Shown: piece by piece, positions 551 through 60,258 of the stretch
How positions within the stretch are numbered: position 1 is the stretch's first letter
Layout of the letters: every line of letters starts with the position of its first letter
From: Candidatus Woesearchaeota archaeon
GTDB taxonomy: Archaea; Nanobdellota; Nanobdellia; Pacearchaeales; GW2011-AR1
Reading direction: 5' to 3'
Length of the DNA: 64,000 nucleotides
Assembly: GCA_964362915.1 (NCBI GenBank)
Contig: CAYIGH010000001.1
Span: 24,056-88,055, forward strand
The notes under the pieces: model-generated
What the model was told of the DNA's origin: nothing
The model's database searches: none
Seen by the model: the letters and a program-made list of their open reading frames with translations, nothing else
Position numbers and translations under genes: made by a program

Positions 551-723
551 GATCCCATAGCTCAGCCCGGTTTAGAGCACCGCTCTTATAAGACTATGGT
601 TCGTTGGAACTGTATTTTCAAGCTAAGAAGATTTAGAAAGTCTTCAAGCAAAGCAAGGGTGTTAAACACACTCTTCAAAGCTAAGAAAGGCGGGGGTCCG
701 GAGTTCAAATCTCCGTGGGATCA
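551..723 (+). tRNA. tRNA with apparent UAU anticodon (tRNA-Ile-like), carrying a ~97-nt intron at the canonical 37/38 position (approx 591-687)
   Basis: Acceptor GATCCCA pairs with TGGGATC and the discriminator is A. D-arm is GCTC-AGCCCGGTTTA-GAGC. Anticodon stem CCGCT/GGCGG pairs only after removing the insert. Loop is CTTATA|A, T-arm is CGGAG-TTCAAAT-CTCCG, and no CCA is encoded. Confidence 0.55.
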
Positions 724-3100: not shown

Positions 3101-3700
3101 ATGGTAGATGAAAATAAATTATCAGAAAATGAACTGAGAGTATTGAGTAGTTTTTTTCCGGAGGGAAAGGAAATAACAATAAAGATGATTCAGGAAAGAA
3201 CAAAATTATCTTATGAGCCCGCTCATAGAATAATAAAGCAATTACTTGAGAGAGAACTAGTTATTGAAAAGAAGTTTGGAAAGACTCTTGTTTATTCATT
3301 ATCTTTTTCAAAAGAAAAAATTAAAATTGGTTTTATCCTCTATGCAAATGAGAAAAAAGAGAGATTTGCAGAGAAATATGGAGTAATTTACAGAGCATTA
3401 TCGAAAATTAGCGAAGAAGATATTGATTTTTTAGCTGTCTTTGGCAGTTATTCGAAGGGGAATCCTACAAAAAAAAGTGATGTTGATGTGCTTTGTGTTA
3501 GTTCTAATAAGAATAAGGTTGAAAACGAAATAAAAGGATTAAGATATGAAACAAATATTGAATTTGCCCCTGTTGTAATATCAAAAACAGAGTTTGCAAA
3601 AATTAAAAATGAGAATAAACAATTTTGGAAGGATTTGGTGGACTATGGAATAATATTTAAGGGTTATGAACTATTTTACTATCATGCTTATTTAAAATGA
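3101..3700 (+). CDS. winged-HTH fused to a minimal nucleotidyltransferase (MNT/MntA-like antitoxin domain)
   Basis: The C-terminal half carries FGSYSKGNPTKKSDVDVLCV, the GS...DxD polymerase-beta-like NTase motif. The N-terminus looks like a wHTH. Confidence 0.6.
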   Translation: MVDENKLSENELRVLSSFFPEGKEITIKMIQERTKLSYEPAHRIIKQLLERELVIEKKFGKTLVYSLSFSKEKIKIGFILYANEKKERFAEKYGVIYRALSKISEEDIDFLAVFGSYSKGNPTKKSDVDVLCVSSNKNKVENEIKGLRYETNIEFAPVVISKTEFAKIKNENKQFWKDLVDYGIIFKGYELFYYHAYLK

Positions 3701-4218
3701 TGAAATCAATAAACTTTTACATAAAAAGAGAACTCCTAATTAGAGATGAGACTGTTAAAATTTTAGCTAATGAATATCTAACCAAATCTAAAAATAATCT
3801 TATTACGTTGAGAATATTAGATGAACTCCAAGATGACAAAGTGTTTAGAAAAAAGTATAATATTCCTAATGATTATTCAACTTATGAGTGGGTTGTAATC
3901 TGTGGATATTACGCCATGTATACTGCCGCAATTTCTTTACTAGCTAAGATCGGTTATAGAAGTAAGAATCATACAGCAACTTTATGTGTCTTAGAAGAAT
4001 TTTTTGTCAAAAAGAAAATTCTAGATGAAGATATTTTGCTGTTGCTCAAATCGGCAATGTTCCAAAAAGAAGAAATTGAAAAGTTATCTGATGCAAGACA
4101 TAAAAGAGAGATAGCTCAGTACAGTATTACAAAACAAACAACAAAATCAATTGCAGAAAAAATAAAAAAAGATGCTTATGATTTTATCAACAAATGTGAG
4201 GAGATAATTAAACAATAG
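3697..4218 (+). CDS. putative HEPN-like helical protein paired with the upstream MNT (toxin-antitoxin-like module)
   Basis: Start overlaps the MNT stop by 4 nt (ATGA). The 173-aa helical protein is the right size for a HEPN partner. No canonical Rx4-6H motif is evident, so the call rests on context. Confidence 0.35.
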   Translation: MMKSINFYIKRELLIRDETVKILANEYLTKSKNNLITLRILDELQDDKVFRKKYNIPNDYSTYEWVVICGYYAMYTAAISLLAKIGYRSKNHTATLCVLEEFFVKKKILDEDILLLLKSAMFQKEEIEKLSDARHKREIAQYSITKQTTKSIAEKIKKDAYDFINKCEEIIKQ

Positions 4219-22505: not shown

Positions 22506-25238
22506 TTAAGCTGTTGTAGTCGTTAACTCTGCGCTTGTTGCTGAAGTACCTTTGTACTTCTTGCCAACATCTGTCATTACATTTGCTTGTGTTGTTAAGT
22601 ATTTAGCAGCGTTTGTTGTGTCACCAGCATTGTATCCTGCAACAAGGGTAGCAACTTTTCCTCCTGTTCTGGAGAAAGTTTCTATTAAGAATTGACCTGC
22701 ACCGATACCTGTCTTTGCAGTGAAATCAGCGCCGCATGTCCTTGTGGATACGCTCAGTAATTGAGCAGCTACTGTATTAACACAGCTTCCGCCAATAACA
22801 ACCAAGTTCTTGCCTGCGACAGAGGTTGCTTCCGCATCAGTTACAGAAACAGAGCCAAGTGAAGTAGCTCCTGAGCCCCCTCCTCCTGTGCTTGTAGTTG
22901 TAATCTCTGCAGTGTTTTCTGCTAGGTAAATATTGGCATATACCTGCTCATTTGGATAACTTATTGTTGCTTTGTACTGGTCAGAATCTCCTTGATCAAT
23001 AGTTGCAATTGTACCGAACAAGTCTGCTTCTTTAGTCATCTTGCTATTACTAGCAAGAGCAATAGCATCCCATGTTCCGTCAGCCTGCCATGTTCTTTTT
23101 ACATCGTCAACACCAATTCCGTCATTACTGTCTCCGCCACTCTCTAATGTAACAACAAGAGCCTGATATAGTGAATTGTCATCTTTTTCCTCAAAGACAA
23201 TAATTGCTGGTAGAAGCACATTAGCTCCTCCATCAGGATTTTTTAAGTATAGATTAGTTGCGTTTCTTGTATTATCTCCAGCACCTGTAATGTTAAATGT
23301 AAGCGCCCCTATAGTGCCTGAAACAGAATTTCTATTAGCAGTTGCTCCTAAAGTAGATAGGTTCAACTGAGTTGTTGTGCTACCGAATGTAATGTTAACT
23401 GCTATATTTGCCGCATTACCATCAAAATTTGCTGTTGGAGTAGTAAATGTTATATCGGTAAAACTATCTCCATCTGGAATCTTTATCGTAGTTAACGCAT
23501 TAGTGCCAACGTCTCCATCCCAGTCATTAAGCGAGATGTTAAGCAAGGGCTCGTAGAAAGCTAACTTTGCGCCGCCTTTTGTTTGTATTGTGGGGTACGC
23601 AACTGCAGCGCCTGTTCCAGAGCTATCAGGGTAATTTAATGTTACCCAATTATTAGCATCGGATGATGTTCCATTGTATTTAACATCGTAAACTTTTCCA
23701 CCTATACTGGCGGTTCCTACTCCATCTGATGTAACAGTAGTTTCAATAGTATCTCCAGAGAAGACATCTATAAAGGTTGCCTTATCTCCGCTAATACCTG
23801 CTGTGGTTGAATTTGTAATTCCACTTACTCTGATTAGCCTGCCATTCTCTTCGTTGCCAACAACGACATAATCGTCTTTGAATAGATTTTGTTTTTCAAG
23901 AACAGTTATATTATGCCCATCGCTGTCTCTTTGCAGTTCAACTTGACCTGGTGTAGTCCAGTTTTTAGCAAACTGAATTGAAGCAGTTTTGCCGTCCTTA
24001 TTTGTAAAGGTGACTTCCATTTTATCGTCCCCGTTATAACCCATCTTTATATCTTCTCTATTTGCTGTATCATCGTCCTTAATGGACAAGCCTGAAAAAT
24101 CAAGTTTAAAGGATCCGAATACAGGGTCTTTCATTGATGTTCCTGCAACGACAGCATCCTTATCACTGTTAGGCGCACGTATGCTAACTATTATTTTAGT
24201 AGCTGCTGTTGTTCCACCTGTAATGGTTGTTGATGTGCCGTCAACTACGGTGTCTTCTTCACCCATAGTTACCGAGCTTCCTTGTGTTGTTGATAACTTG
24301 ACTTTCTCTGCGCCTGCAATAACGCTTGCAGATAGCTTGAGATTTGTCTCGTCAGCATTTGTAATTGCTATTGTAACACCGTTTATTTTTTTAGAAGCGT
24401 TTTCACTTACTTCTTTTGTTTCTGACTTTCCTTCACTATCTGTAACTTTAACAGTTGCAGCAGTATCTGATGCAGAAACTAATTCAACAGTATATGTTTT
24501 ACCAGTGATTGTTACTTCTGCTGAAGGATCGTCGCTACTTAAAGCAACTTTTTCTGCAGTTTTTAACAAGACTAATTCTGTATCGCTTGTTGCAGAAGCG
24601 ATTGTAAACTTCTGTCCAAACATTGTTATATCCTGGCCCTCTGAATCAGCATGCGTTAAATTTACGGCTTTGCTGAATGTTAGAGATGCATTGTAGATAT
24701 AATTTGCTGTTGTTGTACTTGTAGTAATTAAAAACTGAGGGTCTAGATCGCTTGTTGGCTGTTTGCCAGCATAGGTTATCTGAGGATTGAACCCTAGCTC
24801 AATTGTTTGTGTATAACTCGAGTCTACATTTCCTGAAAAACTACCATCTTTTAAGACAGTTGGAAGATCAGTTTTAGTCACAACAGATTTTACTGTATTT
24901 AATGTGTCATTAATGAAGAGTTTTGTCCCTCCAGAAAACAATGGAGCCGCTTCTCCTGTTACTGAAGTAGATGTTCCTGTGCCTCCGCCTTTTGCTGTAG
25001 CTTCAGCTAACTTAGTAGATAAATAACTACTAATATCTGTTACAGCAACAAGGTCAGTATATGCGGCATTTGCGCCGCCATGAACGATGGCAACATCAGC
25101 TGCACCTCCAGCTACGAATGGTGCTGGAAAGTTTGCTGCGGCAGCCAAAGCTACTGTAGAACTTAACATTGCAGTACTAGCAAGAACTGAACCTATTTTT
25201 TTGAATGAAAATCTCATTTTTTTTAAACCTCCTTTCAT
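22506..25238 (-). CDS. S-layer-like secreted surface protein (Thr/Ser/Gly/Ala-rich)
   Basis: 910 aa. Signal peptide MRFSFKKIGSVLASTAMLSSTVALAAAA. Low-complexity T/S/G-rich beta-rich sequence with many NxT/S sequons. Confidence 0.55.
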   Translation of the reverse strand: MKGGLKKMRFSFKKIGSVLASTAMLSSTVALAAAANFPAPFVAGGAADVAIVHGGANAAYTDLVAVTDISSYLSTKLAEATAKGGGTGTSTSVTGEAAPLFSGGTKLFINDTLNTVKSVVTKTDLPTVLKDGSFSGNVDSSYTQTIELGFNPQITYAGKQPTSDLDPQFLITTSTTTANYIYNASLTFSKAVNLTHADSEGQDITMFGQKFTIASATSDTELVLLKTAEKVALSSDDPSAEVTITGKTYTVELVSASDTAATVKVTDSEGKSETKEVSENASKKINGVTIAITNADETNLKLSASVIAGAEKVKLSTTQGSSVTMGEEDTVVDGTSTTITGGTTAATKIIVSIRAPNSDKDAVVAGTSMKDPVFGSFKLDFSGLSIKDDDTANREDIKMGYNGDDKMEVTFTNKDGKTASIQFAKNWTTPGQVELQRDSDGHNITVLEKQNLFKDDYVVVGNEENGRLIRVSGITNSTTAGISGDKATFIDVFSGDTIETTVTSDGVGTASIGGKVYDVKYNGTSSDANNWVTLNYPDSSGTGAAVAYPTIQTKGGAKLAFYEPLLNISLNDWDGDVGTNALTTIKIPDGDSFTDITFTTPTANFDGNAANIAVNITFGSTTTQLNLSTLGATANRNSVSGTIGALTFNITGAGDNTRNATNLYLKNPDGGANVLLPAIIVFEEKDDNSLYQALVVTLESGGDSNDGIGVDDVKRTWQADGTWDAIALASNSKMTKEADLFGTIATIDQGDSDQYKATISYPNEQVYANIYLAENTAEITTTSTGGGGSGATSLGSVSVTDAEATSVAGKNLVVIGGSCVNTVAAQLLSVSTRTCGADFTAKTGIGAGQFLIETFSRTGGKVATLVAGYNAGDTTNAAKYLTTQANVMTDVGKKYKGTSATSAELTTTTA

Positions 25239-36615: not shown

Positions 36616-37148
36616 TTTATGAATCCGCTGAAGATTCTTATCTTTTGAGAGAAGAAGTTCTAAACTATTCTAAGGGAAAAAGAGTTTTAGATGTGGGAAG
36701 TGGTTCTGGGATTCAGGCTCAAGCAGCCTCAGATGCAGGGGCTAAATCTGTTTTGGCTGTTGATATTGACGAAGAAGCTGTTAATGAATTAAAAAAGAAA
36801 GGAATTAAAGTGAGAAAGTCTGATTTATTTTCAAATGTGAAAGGTAAATTTGATTTGGTTGTTTTTAATCCTCCTTATTTGCCTATGGATAAAAGAGAGG
36901 ATAAAGCAAGTGCATTGAATACTTCTGGCGGAAAGAAAGGAGATGAAATTATAATTAGATTTTTGAGAAATGTTAAAAAATATTTAAATAAAGATGGAAT
37001 TGTGCTGATTGTTATTTCTTCTTTGACTCCTAGAAAGAAGATATTGGGGGTTTTGAAAAGAGAAGGATTGAAAAAACAAATTGTTTCAGAAAAGAAACTT
37101 TTTATGGAGAGTTTGGAAGTTTGGGAGATAAGTCGTTTAGAGTTTTAA
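36612..37148 (+). CDS. HemK/PrmC-like N5-glutamine methyltransferase (Mtq2-type)
   Basis: VLDVGSGSGIQAQAAS (motif I) and VVFNPPYLP (NPPY) motifs. Confidence 0.7.
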   Translation: MIYESAEDSYLLREEVLNYSKGKRVLDVGSGSGIQAQAASDAGAKSVLAVDIDEEAVNELKKKGIKVRKSDLFSNVKGKFDLVVFNPPYLPMDKREDKASALNTSGGKKGDEIIIRFLRNVKKYLNKDGIVLIVISSLTPRKKILGVLKREGLKKQIVSEKKLFMESLEVWEISRLEF

Positions 37149-37508
37149 TCTGTGAATCGCCTGATCCTGCCAGAGCTTTCTATAAAAATAAAGATAGTAT
37201 GAAAGTTCTGAAGAGCTTTTTGCAAAGATTATTTTGTTATTTGTTATTATTTCATTTTTTATATAAAGTGGGAGCAATTCAAATATATGGATGTCGTATT
37301 TTGGATTTTTTGCCTGAATTGATAGTGTTTTTTGATAAATTTCTTTTGCTTTTTTTATATTTCCAGTAACAATGCATATATCAATGTCGCTCCTTTGTGT
37401 TGATTTTCCGTTTATATAAGAGCCATAAAGAAGAACTGCAAGAACTTTATTTTTAAATTTGCCAAAATCTGTTTTGATTTGCTCTATAATTTCAGATTGC
37501 ATTTTCAA
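37137..37508 (-). CDS. nucleotidyltransferase-domain protein (MntA-type antitoxin)
   Basis: LAVLLYGSYINGKSTQRSDIDICIV, the GS...DxD motif. Confidence 0.65.
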   Translation of the reverse strand: MKMQSEIIEQIKTDFGKFKNKVLAVLLYGSYINGKSTQRSDIDICIVTGNIKKAKEIYQKTLSIQAKNPKYDIHIFELLPLYIKNEIITNNKIIFAKSSSELSYYLYFYRKLWQDQAIHRLKL

Positions 37509-37884
37509 GTTTTTTTAATATTTTTTTAATTTGGGGAAGGAGGATTTGAATTGATTCTTTAGCTATTATATCGTCTGTTTTGTTGTATTTATGAATAATC
37601 CTGTTTCTTAAGCCATTTGCATCTTCAAGGATTTTTGCTTCATTATCTCCTATAATTTTAAGCTGCATTAATTTTTCAATATTTTTATAGTCATCCTCTA
37701 CTAATTTCTCCTTGTCTTTTAGAAGCATGGCGGCTATATCTGAAATTACTTCTACAATCTCTTGAAATGCTTTATATGATGCTAGCTTAGATTTTTCATC
37801 CTGAGAAGAAATCCATTCTTCTATTTCTATTATCCTCTTTTCTGCTAATTCAATTTTTTCCAGGTATCTTTTCTTTCTCTCCAT
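37492..37884 (-). CDS. HEPN-domain protein (HepT/DUF86-type toxin)
   Basis: R-x4-H motif GLRNRIIHKY. Overlaps the downstream MNT gene by 17 nt. Confidence 0.6.
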   Translation of the reverse strand: MERKKRYLEKIELAEKRIIEIEEWISSQDEKSKLASYKAFQEIVEVISDIAAMLLKDKEKLVEDDYKNIEKLMQLKIIGDNEAKILEDANGLRNRIIHKYNKTDDIIAKESIQILLPQIKKILKKLENAI

Positions 37885-38806: not shown

Positions 38807-41800
38807 TTAATATCCCATAAATATCTTTCTTCTCATATGTACTTTTAAATAAATAACCACAATGACAGCAACTACAATCAATGATAAACTAATCCATATT
38901 ATGCCACTAAGTGCTCCTCTGTTCTCAGAAGGTATTTTTTCCTGCTCTCCTGCTTCAGAGCCACTATCTACCCCTTTTTCTCCGCTTTCTATTGGTGGTT
39001 GACTTAATTCTCCCTCTGATTCAGATGTTGTTGCATTCTCTTTCTTTGGTTTTGAAACACTGGCCCCTCCAGAGCCCCCACCACTACTACTTCCTCCAGA
39101 ACTTCCTCCTGAAGAAGTGGATTCTCTATATGTGGAAAACTCGCAGAATGGAATCTGCCATATGCAATTTGTCGAATCAATTAAAGTTGCTTCAGATGTT
39201 CTATCAACACAATTTGCTCCATTATTATCACAATGAAACAATTGATTACATGTTCCGCTAAATGGTATCTTTACTCTGCAGACCTCTGGATATAAGTTAT
39301 TTATTATCTTGTCTCTTGTCTCAGAAGTTAATCCTGCGTATGTTGAAGTATTAATAATTGAACCTGCCGTGCTAATTGTCCTAACCTTATCATTCAATCC
39401 TGTTTTAGTCAATGAGGCATTAATAAATTCAAAGTAATTACTACCATCGGTATTATTGAGCTTAATATTAATACGTCTTCCTTCTGTATAGTTAGTTTTC
39501 CTGCCAGCATTAGCTCCACATACTTGTCCTTGTATATGCTCATAAACGTTATTTTGATCAATATCATATGATACTGTCCAGCCAGATGGTGCCTTAATCC
39601 TAGTCACAAAACTGCAGAAACCGCATTTATTATTTAGGGTAGCAGTGACGAATGAACTACATTTGCTAATAGCGCATTTATTTTTGTCATCACAAGCTTT
39701 TAGCTTATAATAATAAGTCGTCCCATTAACTAGATTATAGCGCAACGAACGAACTCCGCCGTCATTGTAAATATCTGCTTTATGCCATAACTTATAATCT
39801 CTTACATTGGTGCTAAGCACTCCAACATCATTAATTGTTGCATTTAATGTAATACATCTTGAATCATTTCCGTAAAACTCAAGGCTCCCATTTGCAGGCT
39901 TATTGGTATCATACATAATTAAAGCAGAGTCTGGATATTCTTCTATCTTAACGCCTACAACTTGCGGCGTTTTAGTATCAGTATAATTCGCGGCATTTAC
40001 ACCTGTGCTAGAGCATACAGATAGAAAATCACAATCCCAATCAAAGCAATCTATATTGCCGTCGTTATCATTGTCTATATTATCAAAGCAATCCTCATAT
40101 TGCACATATCCCTTCCTTAATATGTCCTCAAACTTTGCTGCGTCTGCTCCATAGTCAAAACAGCCTGCAATTTCAAAGTCAACAGCTCCAGGTGTAGTAT
40201 AACCAGGGCCAGCTGTATCAGTTGGAAATGTAACATTGCCAGTTCCAGGATTCCCAATTGTTGCAGCATATACTCTCATATCTTTTGTTGAATCATATAA
40301 TGTAGGGAATCTATTCAAGTCTGCCTTTTGTACAGCTATCATAGGCCCGCCAATTTCAGAACACATTAGCTTCTTCCATACATTTAATTTGATATCACTA
40401 GCTGCCCACTGGGAATTTTCGCATGTATAAGCATTAAATGTTTCTACTGCTTTTTCTTTAGTAGCATTCCATTCAGAGGCATATCTAAATCTAAATTCGT
40501 ACCCTTTAGCAGAAGAATTATGGTTTAATTCACATCCTCCGCTAGTTAAACCATCTGTATCCAAATAAACAAAGAATATTACTGTATCATTTCCGTTGCC
40601 AATTCTTTCAATTCCGTAACTCGTTAATTTTTCTTTGTTGCATAAAGAGGCATTAGTAAAGTCCAACATATTAGCTCCAAATCCAAATCCATCTCCCATA
40701 TCTTTCATTCCAATACCACAAATATCTACACTTCTTTGACTTATCCCTGCCTCAGGACAATTATCTACTGCTATTGGCACAGGAGCCCCTGTTTCTATAC
40801 TATTAAATGATTCAACTGTTCCAGCTGTATTGCACCATCCAGTAACCCATTTGCATCCACTTCCACATGCTCCCTGAGTTGTAGCATTAAAGCAGGTTGG
40901 CTCACATCCATAAGAAGTAGCATTACAATATAGATTTGCGTTACATAATGTGGCATTATTTACTAAAGTTGTATTGCTCCAGCATTGGTCCATGACATTA
41001 GTACAGTAATTTCCATTAGAATTCCACCAACATCCATTAGTAGCATTACATCCTACAGCCACAGATGTATAACTCCAGCATTCTTTGCTCCAATCAACTT
41101 CGCATCTTGGGTTAGATTCTGGGAACCATCCGCAACTGATATTTATAATAGTCTTATTCGTGCAGAATGTTTGATTACCATTATATTTCCAGCATTCAGC
41201 CCCGGATGCTCCTCCAACTCCACCTCCTCCCACAACGGAGCCTCCAGAAAATCCTCCTCCTTTAGGATCACACCATCCAGGATTATTCCACTTACATCCT
41301 GATATTGCTGCGCAATTTGTTTGGTTATTAGAACTTGTTGCATTATAGCAAGTATTTGATTGCTGTTCTTCACACCAGCCATTTTCTGCCTTCCATAAAC
41401 ATCCTGAAGTAGTTGTACAGCTAGTTGAAGAAGTTATATTAAAGCATGCTGGCTCACATGTTCCGCCTCCTCCTCCATAATCTCTCCAATTGCAGCTAAC
41501 TTGAGTAACACCATTACAACTAGCTTTAGTTGTTTGGCTCCAGCATCTGTCAAAATTATTTGCACACCATGCGCTGTTAATTCCTCCAAATGTTTCATTT
41601 CTCCACCAACACCCGTTATTTTCACAATTTGATTGAGCATTATAATTCCAACAACTAGTGCTCCAGTTTACTTCACAATGGGGTTGTGACCATGTATCAA
41701 CTCTCCAACTGCATCCAGCAGTAGTGCTACATGAGGAATTTTCATATTTCTGCCAACAACTCTTTGGCTTGAAATCATTATGGTCACACCATCCTCCATC

Positions 41801-44740
41801 TGTTTTACACCATTCAGTTCCTTTTCCAAATCCATCACACCATGTGTCATTTGTCCAGCCACAATCAGTAGTGCTATAACATTGACTTTGATTCAAATTA
41901 AAGCACTTTTCTCCTATACTCCAGTCTCTTTCACACCAACCGCTTCCTGTTCCATTGTTCCATTCACAATTAGAACTTTTATTAGCATAGAACCTAAAAC
42001 TAACATAATAAATATCATTTGAGCCTCCTCCGCCAACCATATATGTATTGTTAGTAAAGTTAATTGTTTGTCTCGTATAATCTGCTGTAAAGTTTCCACT
42101 GCCTAGAATAGTCCCGCTTTTATTTGTCATATTTACGCTTCCGCTTATCCATCCTGTTCCCAAATTACCTAACTGGAATGTCTTGCTTTGATTTATATTG
42201 TTTGCAGACAATCTTGCAGATGATATATTTAACGTTTCATTAATAACAGTAGTATCTCCTAAACATTCTACTTCAGAATTGTCATATCTCCAACAAGAAC
42301 TTCCTTTAAAATCACACCATCCTTTTGGATTCCATGTATCATTTACCCATTCACAACTATTAGTTTCACATTGAGATTTAGTTGTCCAGCCAAAACAATC
42401 TCCTTCTACAAATCCGCACCATGTATCTGAATAACAACTTGGATCGCCACAATCTACTAGTGCATTATTATTGTTGTCTATACCATCCCAGCATATTTCA
42501 ACGTCCTCTCCAATATTTTGCACACAGCTCCCATCATTATCAGTTCCCTGCCATTTACAGCTTCCAGTAGAATTCAACGCGCTTCTCCCTTCATTAGCAC
42601 ACTTATCTCTTGTCTTGCATCTGTCACATGCGTCAAGGCATGTTTTTTCTCCTTTATCTGCGCAATATCCACCTGTTAAGGTGCTATTCTCTATAATCCA
42701 TTTACATCCTCCACCATTTGAATTTGCTTTGCTCTCTGAACAGAAGCATGCTGGAGTCAAACAATTTCCTGCAGAACTTCTTGAGGCATTATTCTTAGAA
42801 TCTCCAAGAAATGTACAATCTCCACATACTGAATTACAATCACCAGCCAAACCTTTTTTCCATTGTTCTTTTGCTTTGCAATATCCTATTCTATTTGGAG
42901 CACTAGTATCTGCTTCAAATTCACAATATCCTAATTTGCTTCCTATACAAGCTGATTTAGCATTTGTTGCATTAACTAAATTACCGTTACCATCTTTTAT
43001 TTCGCATGCAAAGCAAGCTTTATCACAATTTTCTTCATCATCAAATTTGTATTCGCATCTCCCTGTAGGAACAGAAACACTTCCCTCACAATAATTCTCT
43101 ATAATCCACTTTCCTCCAGCAGCCTCACAATTCCTTTGATTTTCAATCTTTACAATATTCTGTGTACTATTCCCAAAAACATCAGTTACTTTGAATTCGC
43201 ATTTGTTTGTTGAATTATTCCATTTACAAGGCATGTACCAAGGGTCTCCTGCAATTTTCTCGCAATTTGAGCTTGTTTCTGCATCTTCACATGCCTTCTC
43301 GCCATTTGGAGTCTGATCCAATTGATCAAAACAGCTCCTTGACTGCCTGTTCTCCGCACAAGTTCCATTCTGCCAGCTGCAACAAGTGCTTAAAGAAGCG
43401 ACATTGTTGCATAAATCAGATTCATTTATTTGATAACAAAATATACCCTTTGCATTAATTGCAGTTCCATTCACCTCATTTGTATTTTTGCATAAACTGC
43501 TAGTATAATTACACCCTATTACGCTATTGCACTTTGTAGAATTTGTATCAAAAATGTAACATCCTGGATTCCATTCATTTAAAATGCTACCATTGATATT
43601 CACAAAATCGCCGCTTCCAAAAGTCGGAGTTGTGCAATTTCCTCCTTTAGTTGAATCCTTCCAATCATTCGCCTGCCACCAACAATAAAATGTATCATAA
43701 CATGCTTTTTCTGTGGTTACATTAGCACAGCTTGTAGAAGAAACCTCCTTATAGCACCATCCATTTGTCGTATTTCCAGTTGGATTACCACTCCATTTAC
43801 ATGTAATACCATAAGAGTTTTGCTCGCATTTAGACTGATTTCCTAGTTTAAAAGAGTCCCAATTCCAGCAATTAACCTCTTCGCATGATCCTGTAGTATT
43901 ATAAGATTGCCATAGACAGTTTTTTTTGTCCTTACAACTAGATTCTGTATTCATATCATAGCAAGAATCTGTAACGCACAAATTATTGATACTCTGCCAT
44001 TTACAAGATTCTCCTAGAGTATTATTTACGCAAGCTGTTTGATTAGTATAATCGAAACTCGAACAGCCTTTTTGTTGACAAGATCCCCATTTCCATTCAC
44101 AATTTATCCCTTGAGCAGATTCACATGCTGTTTTATTCGAATATAATGTACTATCCCAACAATTATTTTCTCTACAATAACTTCCAGAAGCACCCCATGT
44201 ACAATTAATTCCTCTCCAATCTAGCCCTGAGTTACAAGCTGATTGTGACGTATAAATATTACAGCCTTTTTCAATACATTGTCCCCATCCGCATCCTGTT
44301 GTATTCTTGCATGCTGCTTCAGTAGCAATACCCCAACACCCTACATTCAGGCCACCTGTAACTTGATAGCATTGCCCGCTCCAACTACACGATTTGTTAA
44401 AGTAATTATTCTCACATTGAGTTTGATTAGTAGCTGAGAAAGCCCAACAACTTGCAGTTGTACACCAAGAACTAGCTGTTCCATTTGTCCATGTACAATT
44501 TTTCCCTGCAATGGTTGTTGTCGTACATGAAGACTGATTAGCCAAACTCCAGCAATTTAATTCTTCACACCAGCTTCCCCAAGTATCATTTCTCCACAAA
44601 CATCCATTTGAAAGCGTGCAAGTGGATGAAGAAGTATAAGTCCAGCAACTTGCAGCGATAACAAAACTCAAAGATAAAATTATACCAACTGTTATAAAAG
44701 ATAGGATTGTAAAAAATCTAGACTCTTTTAACACCATCAA
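38807..44740 (-). CDS. giant (1977 aa) Cys/Trp-rich extracellular protein with N-terminal signal/TM and C-terminal TM anchor
   Basis: Recurring C-x-W / NCW / CxWxxxxW motifs and very dense NxS/T sequons. Gly/Ser linker near the C-terminus followed by TM IIWISLSLIVVAVIVVIYL and a basic tail. Confidence 0.65.
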   Translation of the reverse strand: MMVLKESRFFTILSFITVGIILSLSFVIAASCWTYTSSSTCTLSNGCLWRNDTWGSWCEELNCWSLANQSSCTTTTIAGKNCTWTNGTASSWCTTASCWAFSATNQTQCENNYFNKSCSWSGQCYQVTGGLNVGCWGIATEAACKNTTGCGWGQCIEKGCNIYTSQSACNSGLDWRGINCTWGASGSYCRENNCWDSTLYSNKTACESAQGINCEWKWGSCQQKGCSSFDYTNQTACVNNTLGESCKWQSINNLCVTDSCYDMNTESSCKDKKNCLWQSYNTTGSCEEVNCWNWDSFKLGNQSKCEQNSYGITCKWSGNPTGNTTNGWCYKEVSSTSCANVTTEKACYDTFYCWWQANDWKDSTKGGNCTTPTFGSGDFVNINGSILNEWNPGCYIFDTNSTKCNSVIGCNYTSSLCKNTNEVNGTAINAKGIFCYQINESDLCNNVASLSTCCSWQNGTCAENRQSRSCFDQLDQTPNGEKACEDAETSSNCEKIAGDPWYMPCKWNNSTNKCEFKVTDVFGNSTQNIVKIENQRNCEAAGGKWIIENYCEGSVSVPTGRCEYKFDDEENCDKACFACEIKDGNGNLVNATNAKSACIGSKLGYCEFEADTSAPNRIGYCKAKEQWKKGLAGDCNSVCGDCTFLGDSKNNASRSSAGNCLTPACFCSESKANSNGGGCKWIIENSTLTGGYCADKGEKTCLDACDRCKTRDKCANEGRSALNSTGSCKWQGTDNDGSCVQNIGEDVEICWDGIDNNNNALVDCGDPSCYSDTWCGFVEGDCFGWTTKSQCETNSCEWVNDTWNPKGWCDFKGSSCWRYDNSEVECLGDTTVINETLNISSARLSANNINQSKTFQLGNLGTGWISGSVNMTNKSGTILGSGNFTADYTRQTINFTNNTYMVGGGGSNDIYYVSFRFYANKSSNCEWNNGTGSGWCERDWSIGEKCFNLNQSQCYSTTDCGWTNDTWCDGFGKGTEWCKTDGGWCDHNDFKPKSCWQKYENSSCSTTAGCSWRVDTWSQPHCEVNWSTSCWNYNAQSNCENNGCWWRNETFGGINSAWCANNFDRCWSQTTKASCNGVTQVSCNWRDYGGGGGTCEPACFNITSSTSCTTTSGCLWKAENGWCEEQQSNTCYNATSSNNQTNCAAISGCKWNNPGWCDPKGGGFSGGSVVGGGGVGGASGAECWKYNGNQTFCTNKTIINISCGWFPESNPRCEVDWSKECWSYTSVAVGCNATNGCWWNSNGNYCTNVMDQCWSNTTLVNNATLCNANLYCNATSYGCEPTCFNATTQGACGSGCKWVTGWCNTAGTVESFNSIETGAPVPIAVDNCPEAGISQRSVDICGIGMKDMGDGFGFGANMLDFTNASLCNKEKLTSYGIERIGNGNDTVIFFVYLDTDGLTSGGCELNHNSSAKGYEFRFRYASEWNATKEKAVETFNAYTCENSQWAASDIKLNVWKKLMCSEIGGPMIAVQKADLNRFPTLYDSTKDMRVYAATIGNPGTGNVTFPTDTAGPGYTTPGAVDFEIAGCFDYGADAAKFEDILRKGYVQYEDCFDNIDNDNDGNIDCFDWDCDFLSVCSSTGVNAANYTDTKTPQVVGVKIEEYPDSALIMYDTNKPANGSLEFYGNDSRCITLNATINDVGVLSTNVRDYKLWHKADIYNDGGVRSLRYNLVNGTTYYYKLKACDDKNKCAISKCSSFVTATLNNKCGFCSFVTRIKAPSGWTVSYDIDQNNVYEHIQGQVCGANAGRKTNYTEGRRINIKLNNTDGSNYFEFINASLTKTGLNDKVRTISTAGSIINTSTYAGLTSETRDKIINNLYPEVCRVKIPFSGTCNQLFHCDNNGANCVDRTSEATLIDSTNCIWQIPFCEFSTYRESTSSGGSSGGSSSGGGSGGASVSKPKKENATTSESEGELSQPPIESGEKGVDSGSEAGEQEKIPSENRGALSGIIWISLSLIVVAVIVVIYLKVHMRRKIFMGY

Positions 44741-46412: not shown

Positions 46413-49187
46413 GTGGTTTTCATATCAGAGCATATTAAAATGGAAGAGATAACTGAAAAAAAAGAGTTCTTGGGAGATAAAGCTGGAGAGGCAGCACCAG
46501 CTCAATATGAAATTATTAAAATAAGAAAAGATAAAGTTATTAAATTTTTGAAAACCGGATATAATTGGCTCAGTTATATTGCTTTGGCTTTTATCGTCTT
46601 TCTAGCTGTGAAAATTAGAACGAGAAATCTTCCTGGCTTAAAAGATGTAACCACTGGGACATGGACTTTAGGGCCTGATCTAGACCCCTTTCTATTTTTA
46701 AGATGGGCAGAATATATTGTTGAACATGGTAAATTGTTTGCTGTTGATACAATGAGATACGTGCCTTTGTTTTATAAAACAGGTAATGAGCTTTTATTTC
46801 ATCCGTATATGATCGCTTGGTTTCATAAAATTGCTGTTTTATTCGGCAGTGAATCAGTGACGCATTCTGCAGTATTATATCCTGTTTTTATGTTTGCTCT
46901 AACTGTTATTGCTTTTTTCTTATTAACTAGAATAATATTTGTTGATTCTATAGGAAAATTAAATGCAAATATAATTGCTTTGATTGCTTCATTTTTTTTA
47001 ACTGTGCTGCCTATCTTCCTTCCAAGAACAATTGCCGGTATCCCTGAAAAAGAATCTCCGGCATTTCTATTTATGTTTCTGGCTCTTTATTTCTTCCTTT
47101 TTGCATGGAAATCGCAAAATATTAAGATTAGATTATTAATGGCTATTTTAGCTGGATTTTCTGCTGGAGGGATGGCTTTGATTTGGGGAGGTTATAATTA
47201 TTTATTTCTTATATTAAGCGTTTCTATTTTCTTTGCTTTTCTTTTAGGAAGTGTTGATAAAAAAAGATTTTATGTGTATTTAACTTGGATAATCTCCACT
47301 TCTTTCGTAATGTGGTATTTCTCTGTCCGATACCCGCTACTTTCTTTAATGACAAGGGGAACTGTCATAGTCGCCTTTATAATTTTAGTTCACTTTATAA
47401 TCTTTAATACACAACTGAAGAAATATTTTGAATCAGATAGATTTTCAAAATTTCCACCAAATATTATAAGCATAATTATTGCTATTATTATTCTGGCTGT
47501 AATGGCTTCTTTTGTCTTTGGATTTAATTATGTCCCGAATACTGTTAAGGGAATTGTAGATAGCTTGATCAGTCCTATAAATACGAGGCTTATCCAGACT
47601 GTTGCAGAGAACAGGTCCCCTTTCTTTTCAGAATGGGTTGGTAGTTTTGGGCCTTTTTTGAGGAATATTCCTATATTTTTCTGGCTATTTTTTCTAGGGT
47701 CTATAATTCTTTTTTATCAATCAATAGATATGCTGCGCAAGAAAGAGCGTTTTTATCTTACAAGCGCCTATATTTTTTTAGTTTCTGCTATTACTTTTAG
47801 CAAATATTCTGGAAATAGCAGATTCAATGGTGAAAATGGCATCAGCCTAACTTTCTACGCGTTAGGATTTATTATATTTTTAGTCATTGCTGGATTTTAT
47901 TATTATAATTATTATAAAAGAAAAGAAATTGATAAATTAAAGAATTTTGAACTTGGCTTTCTATTTGTTCTAACATTCTTTTTATTAACACTTGTTTCTC
48001 TAAGGGGAGGAATTAGACTCGTCATGGTACTGACTCCTTCGATTTCTATTATTGTGGCTTATTTTATGGTGGCTAGCTTTGATTATGCCAGAAAAATGAA
48101 AGGAGATATTTTAAAGATTCTTGTATGGGGTCTTGCTGGCATAATTATATTGGCTGGCGTATTTTCTGGCTGGAAATTTTATAATGAAATAAATGCACAA
48201 GCCGCTGTTTATATTCCATCAATTTACACGCAACAATGGCAGAAGGCAATGGCTTGGGTGAGAGAAAACACTCCTGAGAATGCTGTTTTTGGTCATTGGT
48301 GGGATTATGGATATTGGCTGCAATCTATCGGAAGGAGAGCTACCATATTAGATGGGGGCAATGCGCAAGGTTATTGGAATCATTTGATGGGAAGATATGC
48401 ATTAACAGGACATAATGAGAGAGAGGCACTTGAGTTTTTATATGCCCATAATGCAACTCATTTTCTAATTGACTCAACAGATATCGGGAAATATAGTGCA
48501 TTTTCCAGTATAGGAAGTGACACAAATTATGATAGAGCTAGCTGGTTGCCTGTATTTGTAAAAGATAAGAATCAAGTCCAGGAAACTAAGAATTCAACTA
48601 TTTTTATTTATGGCGGAGGAACTTCTCTTGACTGGGATATAAAATACCAGATCAATGAAACTAATGTATTTTTGCCAGAAGGAAAAGCAGGGTTGGGAGC
48701 TATATTAATTGAACAAAATAGCAATGGCGAATTAGCAACCCAACCAGTTGGAATATTTGTATATCAAAATCAGCAATATAGGCTTCCTCTGCGATATGCT
48801 TTTGCTAATGGCAAGCTTTATGATTCTGATTCTGGAATAGAGTCTGGTGTTTTCTTGATGCCTGTTGTTAATCAAGATGGACAGGGTCTTAGTATAGAAA
48901 AAGATGGGGCATTAATTTATCTTTCCAAAAAAACTGTTAAATCACAACTTGCCAGGCTTTATTTATATAAAGAAAATGGTCCTTATTTCAAATTAGTACA
49001 TAGTGAAGATGATGCTGTTGTTGCTTGGCTCAAAACTCAGAATCCTGGTGTCGAGGACATCGTACTTTTCAATGGTATAAGGGGACCAATAAGAATCTGG
49101 GAAATAAATTATCCATCTGATATTGAATTAAAAGATGAGTATTTAAGCACAGTTTATCCTACTAAAGAATTGGAACTTTTAAGATGA
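46413..49187 (+). CDS. aglB: oligosaccharyltransferase AglB (STT3 homolog)
   Basis: 924 aa with a 13-TM N-terminus and the WWDYGYW catalytic motif. Confidence 0.85.
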   Translation: MVFISEHIKMEEITEKKEFLGDKAGEAAPAQYEIIKIRKDKVIKFLKTGYNWLSYIALAFIVFLAVKIRTRNLPGLKDVTTGTWTLGPDLDPFLFLRWAEYIVEHGKLFAVDTMRYVPLFYKTGNELLFHPYMIAWFHKIAVLFGSESVTHSAVLYPVFMFALTVIAFFLLTRIIFVDSIGKLNANIIALIASFFLTVLPIFLPRTIAGIPEKESPAFLFMFLALYFFLFAWKSQNIKIRLLMAILAGFSAGGMALIWGGYNYLFLILSVSIFFAFLLGSVDKKRFYVYLTWIISTSFVMWYFSVRYPLLSLMTRGTVIVAFIILVHFIIFNTQLKKYFESDRFSKFPPNIISIIIAIIILAVMASFVFGFNYVPNTVKGIVDSLISPINTRLIQTVAENRSPFFSEWVGSFGPFLRNIPIFFWLFFLGSIILFYQSIDMLRKKERFYLTSAYIFLVSAITFSKYSGNSRFNGENGISLTFYALGFIIFLVIAGFYYYNYYKRKEIDKLKNFELGFLFVLTFFLLTLVSLRGGIRLVMVLTPSISIIVAYFMVASFDYARKMKGDILKILVWGLAGIIILAGVFSGWKFYNEINAQAAVYIPSIYTQQWQKAMAWVRENTPENAVFGHWWDYGYWLQSIGRRATILDGGNAQGYWNHLMGRYALTGHNEREALEFLYAHNATHFLIDSTDIGKYSAFSSIGSDTNYDRASWLPVFVKDKNQVQETKNSTIFIYGGGTSLDWDIKYQINETNVFLPEGKAGLGAILIEQNSNGELATQPVGIFVYQNQQYRLPLRYAFANGKLYDSDSGIESGVFLMPVVNQDGQGLSIEKDGALIYLSKKTVKSQLARLYLYKENGPYFKLVHSEDDAVVAWLKTQNPGVEDIVLFNGIRGPIRIWEINYPSDIELKDEYLSTVYPTKELELLR

Positions 49188-50200
49188 GTATAAGTATTTT
49201 ATTTGTACCAATCCTGGCAAGTTTTTTTGTAACTCTATTCATAATACCTTTTTGGATTAGAAAGGCAAAACAAATAGGCTTAGTCTGGACTGATATTAAT
49301 AAATTAAATAGCCAGAAGGTAGCAGGGTCTGGTGGAATTATGGCTATGTGCGGTTTTGTTGTTGGTGTACTTTTGTATATTGCTTATGTTGTATTTATTC
49401 TTGCAAATTATAATTCGCATTTAATAGAAACTCTGGCTCTATTGAGCGTTATATTAATTCTAACAGGAGTAGGATTAGTTGATGATTTATTAGGATGGAG
49501 AAAGGGCGGATTATCAAGGAGGTCTAGAATAATAATGGTATGTTTCGCTGCTATTCCTTTAATTGTTATTAATGCTGGAAAGAGTATCGTGGCTATTCCT
49601 TTTATAGGAACAATTGACTTGGGTCTTATTTATCCTTTAATTATTATCCCCATAGGAATTATTGGTGCGACAACTACCTTTAATTTTCTTGCGGGTTTTA
49701 ATGGTTTGGAAGCTGGTCAGGGAATTCTATTGCTAACGGCTTCTGCATTAGTATCTTATTTTATGGGGAACAGCTGGCTTAGTGTTATTGCTTTGTGTAT
49801 GGTGGCATCTTTAATAGCATTCATATTTTATAATTTTGATCCTGCTATTGTATTTCCTGGCGATTCTCTAACCTATAGCGTTGGAGGATTGATAGCTGCT
49901 GTTTCTATATTGGGAAACTTTGAAAGAGTTGCAGTATTTTTCTTTATACCTTATATTATTGAATTTGTATTGAAAACTAGAGGGAGATTGATAAAGCAAA
50001 GTTTCGGAAAACCTCAAAAAGATGGAAGTTTGGATTTAAGATATGATAAGTTGTATGGACTAGGGCATGTTGCCATAGTTGGCTTGAAAAAAACAGGTAT
50101 AAAGCCAACTGAAAAGAAAGTTGTATTCTCAATCTGGATATTTCAAATTATAATTATAATTCTAGGATTTATTATATTTAAAAGAGGAATATTTGGATAA
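49184..50200 (+). CDS. glycosyltransferase family 4 (MraY/WecA/GPT-like) dolichyl-phosphate sugar-1-phosphate transferase
   Basis: Polytopic. DD motif (VDDLLGW) in a cytoplasmic loop. Translationally coupled to aglB. Confidence 0.5.
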   Translation: MSISILFVPILASFFVTLFIIPFWIRKAKQIGLVWTDINKLNSQKVAGSGGIMAMCGFVVGVLLYIAYVVFILANYNSHLIETLALLSVILILTGVGLVDDLLGWRKGGLSRRSRIIMVCFAAIPLIVINAGKSIVAIPFIGTIDLGLIYPLIIIPIGIIGATTTFNFLAGFNGLEAGQGILLLTASALVSYFMGNSWLSVIALCMVASLIAFIFYNFDPAIVFPGDSLTYSVGGLIAAVSILGNFERVAVFFFIPYIIEFVLKTRGRLIKQSFGKPQKDGSLDLRYDKLYGLGHVAIVGLKKTGIKPTEKKVVFSIWIFQIIIIILGFIIFKRGIFG

Positions 50201-51405
50201 TGTTGATTAATAAGGGTCTTCTAAGGGGGAGTCTGATTCTATTGATAGCTTTTAATGTTTATAATGCTCTTAATTTCTTTTTTCATTTTGCAATGGTTAG
50301 ATTATTGAGTGTTGTTGAATATGGTATTCTTGCTTCTTTATACTCTATTATATATGTGCTTGCTGTATTTACAGAGTCTATTCAAACAGTTATTACTAAG
50401 TATACAACAAAAGAAGAAAATAAAGGAAAATTGAAAAATATTTTGAAAAAAGGAATCAAAAAATCTTTCTTTGTTTCTTCAGGACTCTTTATCTTATATC
50501 TCATAATTTCTATACCTCTCTCTTTTATGCTAAGGATTAGCTATCCTTTAATGGCCCTGAATGGTTTAATGATTCTATTGGCATTTTTAACGCCTGTGAG
50601 CAGAGGAGTTTTACAAGGAAAGAAAAGATTTGGCTTTCTTGGAATAAATATGATTGGTGAAGCTTCTATAAAATTTATTTTATCATTAATTCTTGTAATG
50701 GTTGGCTGGGCTGTTTATGGTGCTATTTTAGGAACGATAGTTGGGATTAGTATTTCATTAATTCTGTCCTTCGATGGTTTAAAAGATATAATAAGAACAA
50801 AAGAAGAAAAGGCCGATACTGAAGGAATTTATGGATATACTAGGCCTGCTTTTTTCATAATATTTGTAATATTGGCATTTTACAGTATTGATATTCTTAT
50901 AGCTAGGATTTTTTTCTCAGAAGAAATGGCTGGCTCTTATGCTATTGCGTCTATTCTTGCTAAGACAATATTTTTTGGAACTCAGCCAATAAGCAGGGCA
51001 ATGTTTCCTATATCTGCCGAGAATTCAATGGAAAAAAGTAAGTCAGATAACATATTTATGAATGCATTAGCTATCTTCTGTGTAGGAATAGTTATTGTAT
51101 TGGCCTTATTTTATTTCTTTCCTGATTTTATTTTAAAAATATTTTCTGGAAAAGAAATTCCTGAATCCGTAAGCATTTTATTTTATTTAGGTATAGCAGT
51201 TAGTTTAATTTCATTCGCAAATTTGGTTTTGTTGCATAAACTATCTTTGGGAAAAGTCAAAGGATATATATATTTGTTTATTTTCCTTATTTTAGAAATA
51301 TTCTTGTTAAGCTGGTTTTCTAAAGATTTGATGCAGTTTTCCATCGCTTTTATTACCGCGTCTGCTGCTTTTCTGTGGGGAAGTGTTGTTTTGATTAGCG
51401 AATGA
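50200..51405 (+). CDS. polysaccharide biosynthesis/flippase (MOP/Wzx-like) membrane protein
   Basis: 401 aa with ~12 TM segments. Sits in the glycosylation cluster. Confidence 0.5.
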   Translation: MLINKGLLRGSLILLIAFNVYNALNFFFHFAMVRLLSVVEYGILASLYSIIYVLAVFTESIQTVITKYTTKEENKGKLKNILKKGIKKSFFVSSGLFILYLIISIPLSFMLRISYPLMALNGLMILLAFLTPVSRGVLQGKKRFGFLGINMIGEASIKFILSLILVMVGWAVYGAILGTIVGISISLILSFDGLKDIIRTKEEKADTEGIYGYTRPAFFIIFVILAFYSIDILIARIFFSEEMAGSYAIASILAKTIFFGTQPISRAMFPISAENSMEKSKSDNIFMNALAIFCVGIVIVLALFYFFPDFILKIFSGKEIPESVSILFYLGIAVSLISFANLVLLHKLSLGKVKGYIYLFIFLILEIFLLSWFSKDLMQFSIAFITASAAFLWGSVVLISE

Positions 51406-51550
51406 TGTTATTTACTACTCTGTTAAATAAAGATTATTATGATGAAGTATATTAAATCGCGAATTGTGTGAGGCATTATCTTTTATAGAAAATAATAAAG
51501 ATTCAATCTCTAAACCTCCAATAAATCAAAGTCCAAATAGTCTCTAACCT

Positions 51551-52921
51551 TTACGCATCCAATAGAGCTAGAAAAATTGACAATGGGATTATTTTTTGTT
51601 TTGGTTCAAAGATTTTCTTAGATAGTACAAAAAAATCTTTCATTTTTCCTATAATTAGTTTTATTTGTTTTGCGGATTTTCCCCATTTTACTTCAAATCC
51701 GACTGCCTTTTCTTTTGTCCTTATAATAGCATCTACTTCTGTACTATTCCTCCAGTAAAACACCTCATCAGCAAATATTTCTGAAGATTTTGAAAATCTT
51801 AGCAGATGATATGCTAATATATTTTCTGCTTTTTTATTTTCTTTTTCTTTTACTTCAATTAAACACCATTCCTCAAAAAGCTCGTAAAAGATAGGGTCTC
51901 CTAAATGTATTTTTTTGTTTTTTCCAAATTCTATTGTTAAATTGTTAAGATTAATATAATGACTTATAGCGATTAAAAACATCTCTTCAAATGTATGGGC
52001 ATAAGAGTTTATTGTTTTAGGAGACTTAATTGATGTCTCTTTAGCTATGCCTTCCCAGCTCATAGGGTTAGGAATCTTCTGAATTATTGATTTCATAATC
52101 TCTCTTGCTATCTCAGGGCTTCTGTTTACCTTTACAAGATCGCCTTTAATCCAGCTAATATAAGTTTCTTTTACCGAAGAGCTTATTCCTTTAGTTTCTG
52201 CATATGAATTAATTGCAAGAGGAAAGCCCCCTATTTTTAAGTAAATGGAAAATAGTTTATCTAATTCGTTAAAATAAGGAAATGTCTTTATTGATTTTTC
52301 TATTATTTCTTTTTCGCTTAAAGAAGAAAGTTTTAATAGTTTTTTGTAAAGACCCTCATTCATAATTTTTATAAACTCTCTAAAGGATAATGGGCGAAGA
52401 AGATAATCTTTTCCTCCGCCTCTTCTTCCAGGGAAGTATTCAATCTCTTTTTTGATTTCTAAAGATACAGAACCACTAATAAATACTATATCTTCTTTAA
52501 ATTTGCCCTCATCAATCAAACTTTTTATTGTTCTAAACCATTCTTCAGCAAAAGTAATTTCATCTAAAAAAATGTGCGAGCTTTTAACGTCAAACTCTTC
52601 GCGAATGCTAAAATAGGTTTCTAGGAGATCGTGAAGTTCTTTATAATCTTTTAGTTCGTCACATTTAAAATAAAAAATTTGTTCTGGTTTTACCTCTTTT
52701 TCCAATAACTTTTGTATCATTAGTTTTATTAGTGTTGTCTTCCCTACTTGCCTTGGCCCAAATAGGAAATGAAGAGAAAAAGGCTTAAAAGTTATTTCTG
52801 ATAACAATTTTGGTTGCCACTTTATTTTTTTTTCTTCCCATTTCTTGAACTCTTCATCTTCTTTGAAGTGTTCTTTTCCTTTCCACCAGGGGTTTTTTGC
52901 TAATAATACAGTTCTTTCCAT
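51551..52921 (-). CDS. AAA+ ATPase (AAA_14/DUF4143-type)
   Basis: Walker A GPRQVGKTT plus a C-terminal DUF4143-like region. Confidence 0.65.
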   Translation of the reverse strand: MERTVLLAKNPWWKGKEHFKEDEEFKKWEEKKIKWQPKLLSEITFKPFSLHFLFGPRQVGKTTLIKLMIQKLLEKEVKPEQIFYFKCDELKDYKELHDLLETYFSIREEFDVKSSHIFLDEITFAEEWFRTIKSLIDEGKFKEDIVFISGSVSLEIKKEIEYFPGRRGGGKDYLLRPLSFREFIKIMNEGLYKKLLKLSSLSEKEIIEKSIKTFPYFNELDKLFSIYLKIGGFPLAINSYAETKGISSSVKETYISWIKGDLVKVNRSPEIAREIMKSIIQKIPNPMSWEGIAKETSIKSPKTINSYAHTFEEMFLIAISHYINLNNLTIEFGKNKKIHLGDPIFYELFEEWCLIEVKEKENKKAENILAYHLLRFSKSSEIFADEVFYWRNSTEVDAIIRTKEKAVGFEVKWGKSAKQIKLIIGKMKDFFVLSKKIFEPKQKIIPLSIFLALLDA

Positions 52922-53073
52922 CGGTATTCTAGATAATGCTTATTTATAAATGTATCGGTATTTAGAATACTTAAGTTTTAGTTAACTTTTATTCATTAAT
53001 TTACAGTAATTACTACTTCAAAAAATAACAAAATTTGGAGAAGGTTTAAATAGTTGAAAAGTCTGAAAATTTT

Positions 53074-53487: not shown

Positions 53488-53490
53488 CAT

Positions 53491-56086: not shown

Positions 56087-56145
56087 TTCCCATATATAAA
56101 CCCTATTGTATATATATTTAAAATGAATGAATTAAATGATTTCTT

Positions 56146-58336: not shown

Positions 58337-58366
58337 CTTTTTAAAGAAAAGAATGATTTAAATTAA

Positions 58367-59332: not shown

Positions 59333-59397
59333 TTGAATAGTGATTAGATATATTTCAATATAGCAACCTTTTTATACAAAATCTTTGTCTAATACCA

Positions 59398-60255: not shown

Positions 60256-60258
60256 AAA

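Follow-up and report, generated by a model that had tools for sequence, protein, structure and literature searches.

An intron-containing tRNA-Ile(UAU) gene with an expanded intron in an AT-rich DPANN archaeon, and its probable role in AUA decoding

The tRNA gene and its surroundings

The window, by which we mean the whole 64-kb stretch of DNA analysed, carries on its forward strand a tRNA gene at positions 551-723. The Rfam model RF00005 recognises the gene with 46.6 bits (gathering score, 29; E = 8.6e-07 over the full 64 kb and 3.8e-09 in a local search), and positions 1-71 of the model align in full, with a single insert of about 98 nt after CUUAUA. With introns allowed (-i), ARAGORN reports a tRNA-Ile(tat) whose acceptor, D, anticodon and T stems have 7, 4, 5 and 5 bp, respectively, and whose 97-nt intron lies between 'ttata' and 'aggcg', i.e. 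at 591-687, the canonical 37/38 position. In its default mode, ARAGORN missed this gene and called only tRNA-Leu(GAG) and tRNA-Pro(UGG), which are the only other tRNAs of the window and are both intronless. The first-pass annotation had read a UAU anticodon in a mature loop CUUAUAA, interrupted at 37/38 by an intron of about 97 nt. Rfam, ARAGORN -i and our hand reading agree on the anticodon and the loop, and ARAGORN -i places an intron of exactly this length at this site.

By hand, we read the acceptor stem at 551-557/716-722, the D arm at 560-578 and the anticodon stem at 580-584 (CCGCU) paired with 689-693 (GGCGG). Positions 32-37 of the anticodon loop are C585, U586, U587, A588, U589 and A590, with the anticodon (positions 34-36) at 587-589; the intron follows, and then A688. 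The variable loop (694-698) has 5 nt, the T arm lies at 699-715, the discriminator is A723 and no CCA is encoded. Rfam and ARAGORN -i delimit the same 5′ exon (551-590) and 3′ exon (688-723, A38 first). The former has the same sequence as the 5′ exon of a metagenome locus, L231, and the latter is the same in L231 and in two further metagenome loci, L177 and L236. The features relevant to the isotype that can be read in the gene are the anticodon, A73 and the general tRNA body, and we infer that the mature tRNA, of the type named tRNA-Ile3 by the authors of tRNAscan-SE, is charged with isoleucine.

An A/T box of the archaeal TATA type, CTTTAAATAT, precedes the gene on the forward strand at 521-530, with about 20 nt between its end and the start of the mature tRNA. 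A aaaCTTTAAATA-type motif stands at a like upstream distance in most of the 124 related genes compared, and the box can be proposed as the promoter of the gene. Further upstream, the N-terminal part of a YchF-related GTPase is encoded divergently on the reverse strand (2-500) and runs off the start of the window. Downstream, a convergent gene on the reverse strand (721-1662) encodes a Methyltransf_33 protein of 313 aa that is remotely EgtD-like. This gene had been described as EgtD-like and as abutting the tRNA by 3 nt. The adjacency is real, but the two genes overlap, the TGA stop codon (complement of 721-723) covering the last 3 nt of the tRNA. Likewise, the resemblance to EgtD holds at the level of the family (Pfam Methyltransf_33, 58 bits) and not beyond: a strict EgtD assignment was rejected, as the match to NCBIfam egtD (44 bits) lies below the cut-off of 291 and solved structures gave no sequence match.

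Both neighbours recur next to related tRNA genes. YchF-like GTPase homologues, 58-84% identical, are found near the tRNA in 50 of the 100 related loci with enough flanking sequence, and Methyltransf_33 homologues in 34 of 82. The methyltransferase near L236 is 70% identical, and the neighbourhood of L177 holds both a methyltransferase (64%) and a YchF-like GTPase (81%); L135, L157, L202 and L209 also belong to the loci with a conserved neighbourhood. About 49 metagenome loci (within L121-L240) also have tRNA-Glu(UUC) no more than a few kb away from tRNA-Ile(UAU), an arrangement that this part of the window does not have.

The DNA of the window is archaeal and rich in AT (32.4% GC). It encodes the ribosomal proteins L21e, S13, S4, S11 and L11, an RNA polymerase subunit with Rpb3/RpoA-type domains, Spt5, prefoldin and SepF. 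Two paralogous STT3/AglB-type oligosaccharyltransferases (46413-49187, forward; 54161-56086, reverse) flank a glycosylation cluster (49184-62611) that encodes family 2 and family 4 glycosyltransferases and a flippase-like protein; within it, a complete dTDP-rhamnose set (rmlD, C, B and A) occupies 59398-62611. Pairs of nucleotidyltransferase and HEPN/HepT-like genes, which are toxin-antitoxin-type modules, are located at 3101-4218 (forward) and 37137-37884 (reverse). An ORF of 1977 aa (38807-44740, reverse) has no Pfam match, nor do other sizeable ORFs such as one of 910 aa at 22506-25238.

Relatives in DPANN archaea and the decoding of AUA

We searched for related genes in two scans. The genome scan used a degenerate pattern made of the D arm and CTTATA, with one genome per species, and gave at least 120 loci. 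The metagenome scan, which gave at least 120 loci with at least 99 distinct complete genes, used a pattern that includes the first three intron bases, so that only intron-containing genes could match. Together, the two scans provided more than 120 related DPANN tRNA-Ile(UAU) genes. Among the genome-scan matches listed, 34 loci carry an archaeal label (Woese-, Pace-, Micr-, Aenigm-, Iainarchaeota and others). A 37/38 intron interrupts 28 of these 34 genes (25 fully parsed, with introns of 26-86 nt, and three with evident introns that the script left unparsed), the remaining six being intronless. Introns of the metagenome matches listed range from 44 to 105 nt, 47 nt being the most frequent length (28 loci); for the listed matches of both scans combined, the range is 26-105 nt and the mode is the same. 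Altogether, the intron-containing tRNA-Ile(UAU) gene is the norm in Woese- and Pacearchaeota-like lineages. The first-pass annotation held that UAU tRNA-Ile is known from only a few lineages; this is contradicted by ARMAN-2, -4 and -5, already described in 2011 (PMC3239211), by the Woese-, Pace-, Micr-, Aenigm- and Iainarchaeota genomes and by about 100 metagenome contigs.

The closest genome relative among the matches listed is a Woesearchaeota MAG (L018), with a mature tRNA that is 95% identical and an intron of 85 nt. Metagenome relatives come closer still in their exons: L231 has the same exons as the window gene and an intron of 54 nt, L177 differs by one exon base (intron of 47 nt) and L236 by two (48 nt). 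That exons remain identical or nearly so while the introns differ indicates purifying selection on the exons. Judging from these nearest relatives, the window probably derives from a Woese- or Pacearchaeota-like lineage.

Some of the scanned loci call for separate comment. About 80 of the genome-scan loci listed are bacterial, with an intronless tRNA-Ile(UAU); most belong to Patescibacteria, and the groups represented include Saccharibacteria, Parcubacteria, Dojkabacteria and Peribacteria, together with some Gammaproteobacteria, Ignavibacteria and Dormiibacterota. Intronless genes of this type are frequent in bacteria of the candidate phyla radiation and are also seen in several other bacterial groups, which suggests that lysidine-free decoding of AUA is widespread there. 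Two contigs labelled 'bacterium' (L088, DAITPU010000001.1) and 'Omnitrophota' (L100, DATJPO010000004.1) carry an archaeal-type gene with the intron plan of Woese- and Pacearchaeota, and they are probably mislabelled or mis-binned DPANN DNA. Finally, in a Woesearchaeota locus (L098, JACOZP010000006.1) and in one labelled Methanosarcinales (L093), the T-arm region appears to be split by a second insert in addition to the 37/38 intron. These may be multi-intron tRNA-Ile(UAU) genes that our parser was unable to close.

In the 19 window ORFs used for codon counts, AUA accounts for 399 of 10,038 codons, which is 39.7 per 1000 and 43% of the isoleucine codons. The AUA positions of the window's RmlA align with I, V or L in four solved homologues. 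All four have I at positions 10 and 51; I or V is found at positions 33 and 39 and, with A in two chains, at position 152; methionine occurs at one AUA position only, the variable site 107, in one of the four. AUA is thus read as isoleucine, and at such a frequency an efficient decoder is needed.

Most archaea decode AUA by tRNA-Ile2(CAU), which TiaS modifies with agmatidine. Neither a TiaS-like protein nor a CAU tRNA was found within the 64-kb window. ARMAN-2, -4 and -5 were shown to have tRNA-Ile(UAU) and to lack TiaS and tRNA-Ile(CAU) (Fujishima et al. 2011, PMC3239211), and Nanoarchaeum equitans and Korarchaeum cryptofilum also use tRNA-Ile(UAU) and have no tRNA-Ile2(CAU). Our literature search linking TiaS or agmatidine to DPANN, Woesearchaeota or Pacearchaeota returned nothing beyond the 2011 ARMAN paper.

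Taking this evidence together with the splice-site analysis below, we propose, with a probability of roughly 85%, that 551-723 is a functional intron-containing tRNA-Ile(UAU) gene of an AT-rich DPANN archaeon of the Woese-/Pacearchaeota type, and that its product decodes AUA, most likely replacing the TiaS/tRNA-Ile2(CAU) system, of which TiaS would be absent from the genome. A supplementary role, in a genome that also has TiaS and tRNA-Ile2(CAU), has a precedent in some bacteria that keep both AUA-decoding systems. We consider it quite unlikely here: N. equitans, K. cryptofilum and ARMAN-2, -4 and -5 all lack tRNA-Ile2(CAU), and TiaS as well where it was examined, and we found no CAU tRNA in the approximately 150 archaeal loci scanned, which are short.

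Replacement of the agmatidine system by a UAU tRNA is best compared with that of ARMAN-2 (Ca. Micrarchaeum acidiphilum), another DPANN archaeon with a UAU anticodon, a 37/38 intron in a bulge-helix-bulge and a proposed substitution of TiaS and tRNA-Ile2(CAU); its precursor is cleaved in vitro by its own endonuclease (PMC3239211). The ARMAN-2 intron, however, measures 25 nt and has a strict hBHBh′ motif, whereas the window intron has 97 nt and a weak outer helix, with hairpins inserted opposite the 5′ bulge, and the lineages differ. N. equitans and K. cryptofilum, long held to be rare exceptions, likewise rely on a UAU decoder, and the Korarchaeum gene has an intron, but they belong to other phyla and homology of the introns is not detectable. 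In reduced bacterial genomes, UAU anticodons serve for AUA in Mycoplasma mobile (PMC3575796) and in many Patescibacteria of the genome scan; those tRNAs differ in being intronless and in replacing TilS/lysidine and not TiaS/agmatidine.

Splice motif and anatomy of the intron

In the predicted precursor, CUUA of the anticodon loop (585-588, tRNA positions 32-35) pairs over 4 bp with UAAG near the end of the intron (682-685); we call this helix H. It lies between two 3-nt bulges, one at 589-591 (U36, A37 and the first intron base) and one at 686-688 (the last two intron bases and A38). In each bulge, the cut is predicted behind the second base (590/591 and 687/688), as is canonical for a 37/38 intron in Archaea. 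The 3′ bulge is closed by helix H on one side and by the anticodon stem on the other. The far side of the 5′ bulge is closed by two pairs, G592-C619 and A593-U618, then a mismatch and a hairpin (hairpin 1), and the strand that faces this bulge is interrupted by the 62 nt between C619 and U682. Because of the weak outer helix and the 62-nt interruption, the motif is relaxed and not a strict hBHBh′. The unconstrained minimum-energy fold of the precursor does not contain a bulge-helix-bulge, which costs 1.6 kcal/mol when imposed (-30.1 versus -31.7 kcal/mol). Of the bulge-helix-bulge looked for at the junctions, the 4-bp helix and two 3-nt bulges can be read in the sequence, but the outer helix is weak and the motif is absent from the unconstrained optimum.

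Comparative data address the same structure. Nearly all relatives share the geometry of helix H and its bulges. In an alignment of 46 genes, 98.9% of cells preserve the pairing of helix H, and in a set of 28 genes, made up of 27 genome loci and the window, 23 have a helix of 4 bp; covariation is not possible in this helix, as its exon strand does not vary. When the anticodon stem, helix H and hairpin 1 are taken together, 96% of cells are paired, versus 41-48% with slid partners, and a covariation score as high as that of the tested structure was not obtained in any of 500 shuffles. RNAalifold favours an alternative helix across the 3′ splice site, in which UUUC of the intron (616-619) pairs with G685-A688 (alignment columns 38-41 with 108-111). 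Its outer pair changes from U-A to G-C in eight sequences that form a single subclade with C38. We did not adopt this helix, since its sole two-sided change is restricted to one subclade; it possibly reflects an alternative conformer of the precursor or one inherited event. The splicing endonucleases of DPANN archaea often carry an insert linked to more disruption of tRNA genes (PMC5829648). Among the proteins of the 64-kb window, neither EndA nor RtcB was found.

The conserved part of the intron is a module at 592-619 made of the outer helix h′ (G592-C619 and A593-U618), hairpin 1 and UUUUC (615-619). Hairpin 1 pairs 595-602 with 607-614 over 8 bp under a GUUG loop (603-606). It is present in every predicted fold, and compensatory changes are seen in seven of its eight pairs among the 46 aligned genes. 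The common order of these introns is AGA, hairpin 1, (A/U)UUUC, a short variable hairpin and UAAG-AA. Over 100 diverged genes keep the top of the hairpin 1 stem, YYC-RNNA-GRR, in introns whose other parts turn over.

Relative to 45 relatives with introns of 44-49 nt, the extra length of the window intron forms one gap block of about 50 nt, at approximately 626-675, inside the variable 3′ half. In the folds, this lineage-specific insertion forms or extends two hairpins, 622-649 and 652-682. It is flanked by the direct repeats ttcaagctaagaa (617-629) and ttcaaagctaagaa (674-687), which suggests that the intron expanded by duplication of the segment just upstream of the 3′ splice site. The intron also contains a repeat ttcaagc (643-649), and the first copy of the flanking repeat is a pseudo-3′-site that can also pair with the anticodon loop. 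No further copy of the insertion was found in the window or in 240 related loci, and a mobile or repeated element as the source of the 50-62 inserted nt was rejected, the matches there being of 12-15 nt and at chance level. Nor does the intron (591-687) belong to an Rfam family; the only snoRNA-like match is on the opposite strand, and its 13.5 bits stay below the gathering score of 60 (E = 4.8). A box C/D guide RNA was rejected as well, as neither RUGAUGA (C/C′) nor CUGA (D/D′) occurs in 591-687.

The intron had been called long, which is true of 97 nt compared with a mode of 47 nt, but it is not unique: among the metagenome matches listed, 12 genes have introns of at least 81 nt, and four exceed the window intron with 99, 100, 103 and 105 nt. 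The long introns of L218, L198, L179 and L225 are expanded at the same site as that of the window, and those of L149, L239 and L228 ahead of hairpin 1. The length of the window intron thus represents a private expansion of a tolerant region in an intron of the same kind.

It could be argued that this insertion of about 50 nt broke the splice motif and that the gene is decaying, a second and intact copy elsewhere doing the work. The weak outer helix, the unconstrained fold without the motif and the duplicated pseudo-3′-site at 622-630 would fit such a scenario, and this second GCUAAGAAG copy might be a rival pairing partner of the anticodon loop. Splicing at this copy was nevertheless rejected, because the downstream AUUUAG is unable to re-form the anticodon stem. 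We regard decay as very improbable. Indeed, the exons are intact and the same as in relatives with short introns, and the insertion leaves helix H and the two 3-nt bulges as they were and forms hairpins of its own. Moreover, the four relatives expanded at the same site tolerate their insertions, introns reach 105 nt, the promoter-like box is intact, and AUA is too frequent to be left undecoded.

A placement of the intron elsewhere, such as at 34/35, which would give a tRNA-Ser(UGA) and which ARAGORN -i chose for 12 relatives including L231 with its window-identical exons, can practically be dismissed, being ruled out by geometry (the cut would fall inside helix H and not in a bulge) and by a 5-nt variable loop in place of the long arm of tRNA-Ser, besides requiring an intron end UAGG that the window lacks, in a gene that ARAGORN itself calls Ile(tat) and in which Rfam aligns CUUAUA ahead of the insert. 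The other relatives called tRNA-Ser(tga) are L136, L171, L181, L189, L192, L193, L209, L217, L219, L222 and L223. The miscall of the exon-identical L231 means that predictor calls alone are not decisive.

From these features, the following course can be proposed for the functional tRNA-Ile(UAU) gene. Transcription would start from the A/T box located about 20 nt upstream. In the precursor, positions 32-35 (CUUA) would pair with UAAG, which ends two bases before the intron does, and thereby place both splice sites in the 3-nt bulges flanking the 4-bp helix. The archaeal splicing endonuclease would then cut at 590|591 and 687|688 and a ligase would join the exons into a 76-nt tRNA with the anticodon loop CUUAUAA, to which CCA would be added later. 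The mature tRNA, probably with a modified U34, would decode the very frequent AUA as isoleucine and most likely substitute for the agmatidine-modified tRNA-Ile2(CAU) made by TiaS. As for the intron, its 97 nt would result from a private insertion of about 50 nt into the fast-evolving 3′ half of a conserved intron of about 47 nt.

Retention of the intron and its significance

The wide retention of hairpin 1 has two candidate explanations, recognition by the endonuclease and an intron-dependent modification step. In the latter case, the intron would be retained for a function in the unspliced precursor, where hairpin 1 and the anticodon-intron helix would present U34 and U36 to a modification enzyme and so prevent misreading of AUG. 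In the folded precursor, U34 and A35 are paired with A683 and U682, and U36 and A37 lie in the bulge. The neighbouring methyltransferase could be one candidate partner for such a step. An intron in 28 of the 34 archaeal-labelled genes among the genome-scan matches listed, a covarying hairpin and a conserved neighbourhood are compatible with a role in modification without demanding it, and endonuclease recognition together with shared ancestry explain the same facts. We consider the modification role rather unlikely.

Two known systems are of interest in this respect. Eukaryotic nuclear tRNA-Ile(UAU) shares with the window gene the UAU anticodon, the 37/38 intron and an anticodon-intron helix, although the eukaryotic endonuclease works by a ruler mechanism. 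To our knowledge, no case of intron-dependent modification of tRNA-Ile(UAU) has been demonstrated in Archaea. In yeast pre-tRNA-Ile(UAU), the anticodon-intron helix is required for the formation of pseudouridine at positions 34 and 36 by Pus1 (PMC11408192). If the modification role were true, the archaeal intron would be a counterpart of this intron-dependent pseudouridylation. The pre-tRNA-Trp of Haloferax volcanii also resembles the window gene in its long archaeal 37/38 intron with a conserved internal structure. This euryarchaeal intron, of about 100 nt, differs in being a box C/D guide for the 2′-O-methylation of C34 and U39, whereas the window intron has no C/D boxes.

The gene type, including its intron, was already reported for ARMAN archaea in 2011, and the window gene is a typical DPANN member with an unusually expanded intron. 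Since ARAGORN misses the gene by default and, with introns allowed, mislabels relatives with the same exons, annotation of such genomes can overlook what is probably their sole AUA decoder. The tRNA-Ile(UAU) family is thus an annotation trap, its members being missed or called tRNA-Ser. The window adds a further well-documented example of genome-reduced DPANN archaea in which AUA is decoded by an intron-containing tRNA-Ile(UAU) and, most likely, not by agmatidine. Finally, a testable lead on why this intron is retained is given by the conserved hairpin and by the fact that tRNA-Ile(UAU) almost always has an intron, in archaea and eukaryotes alike.
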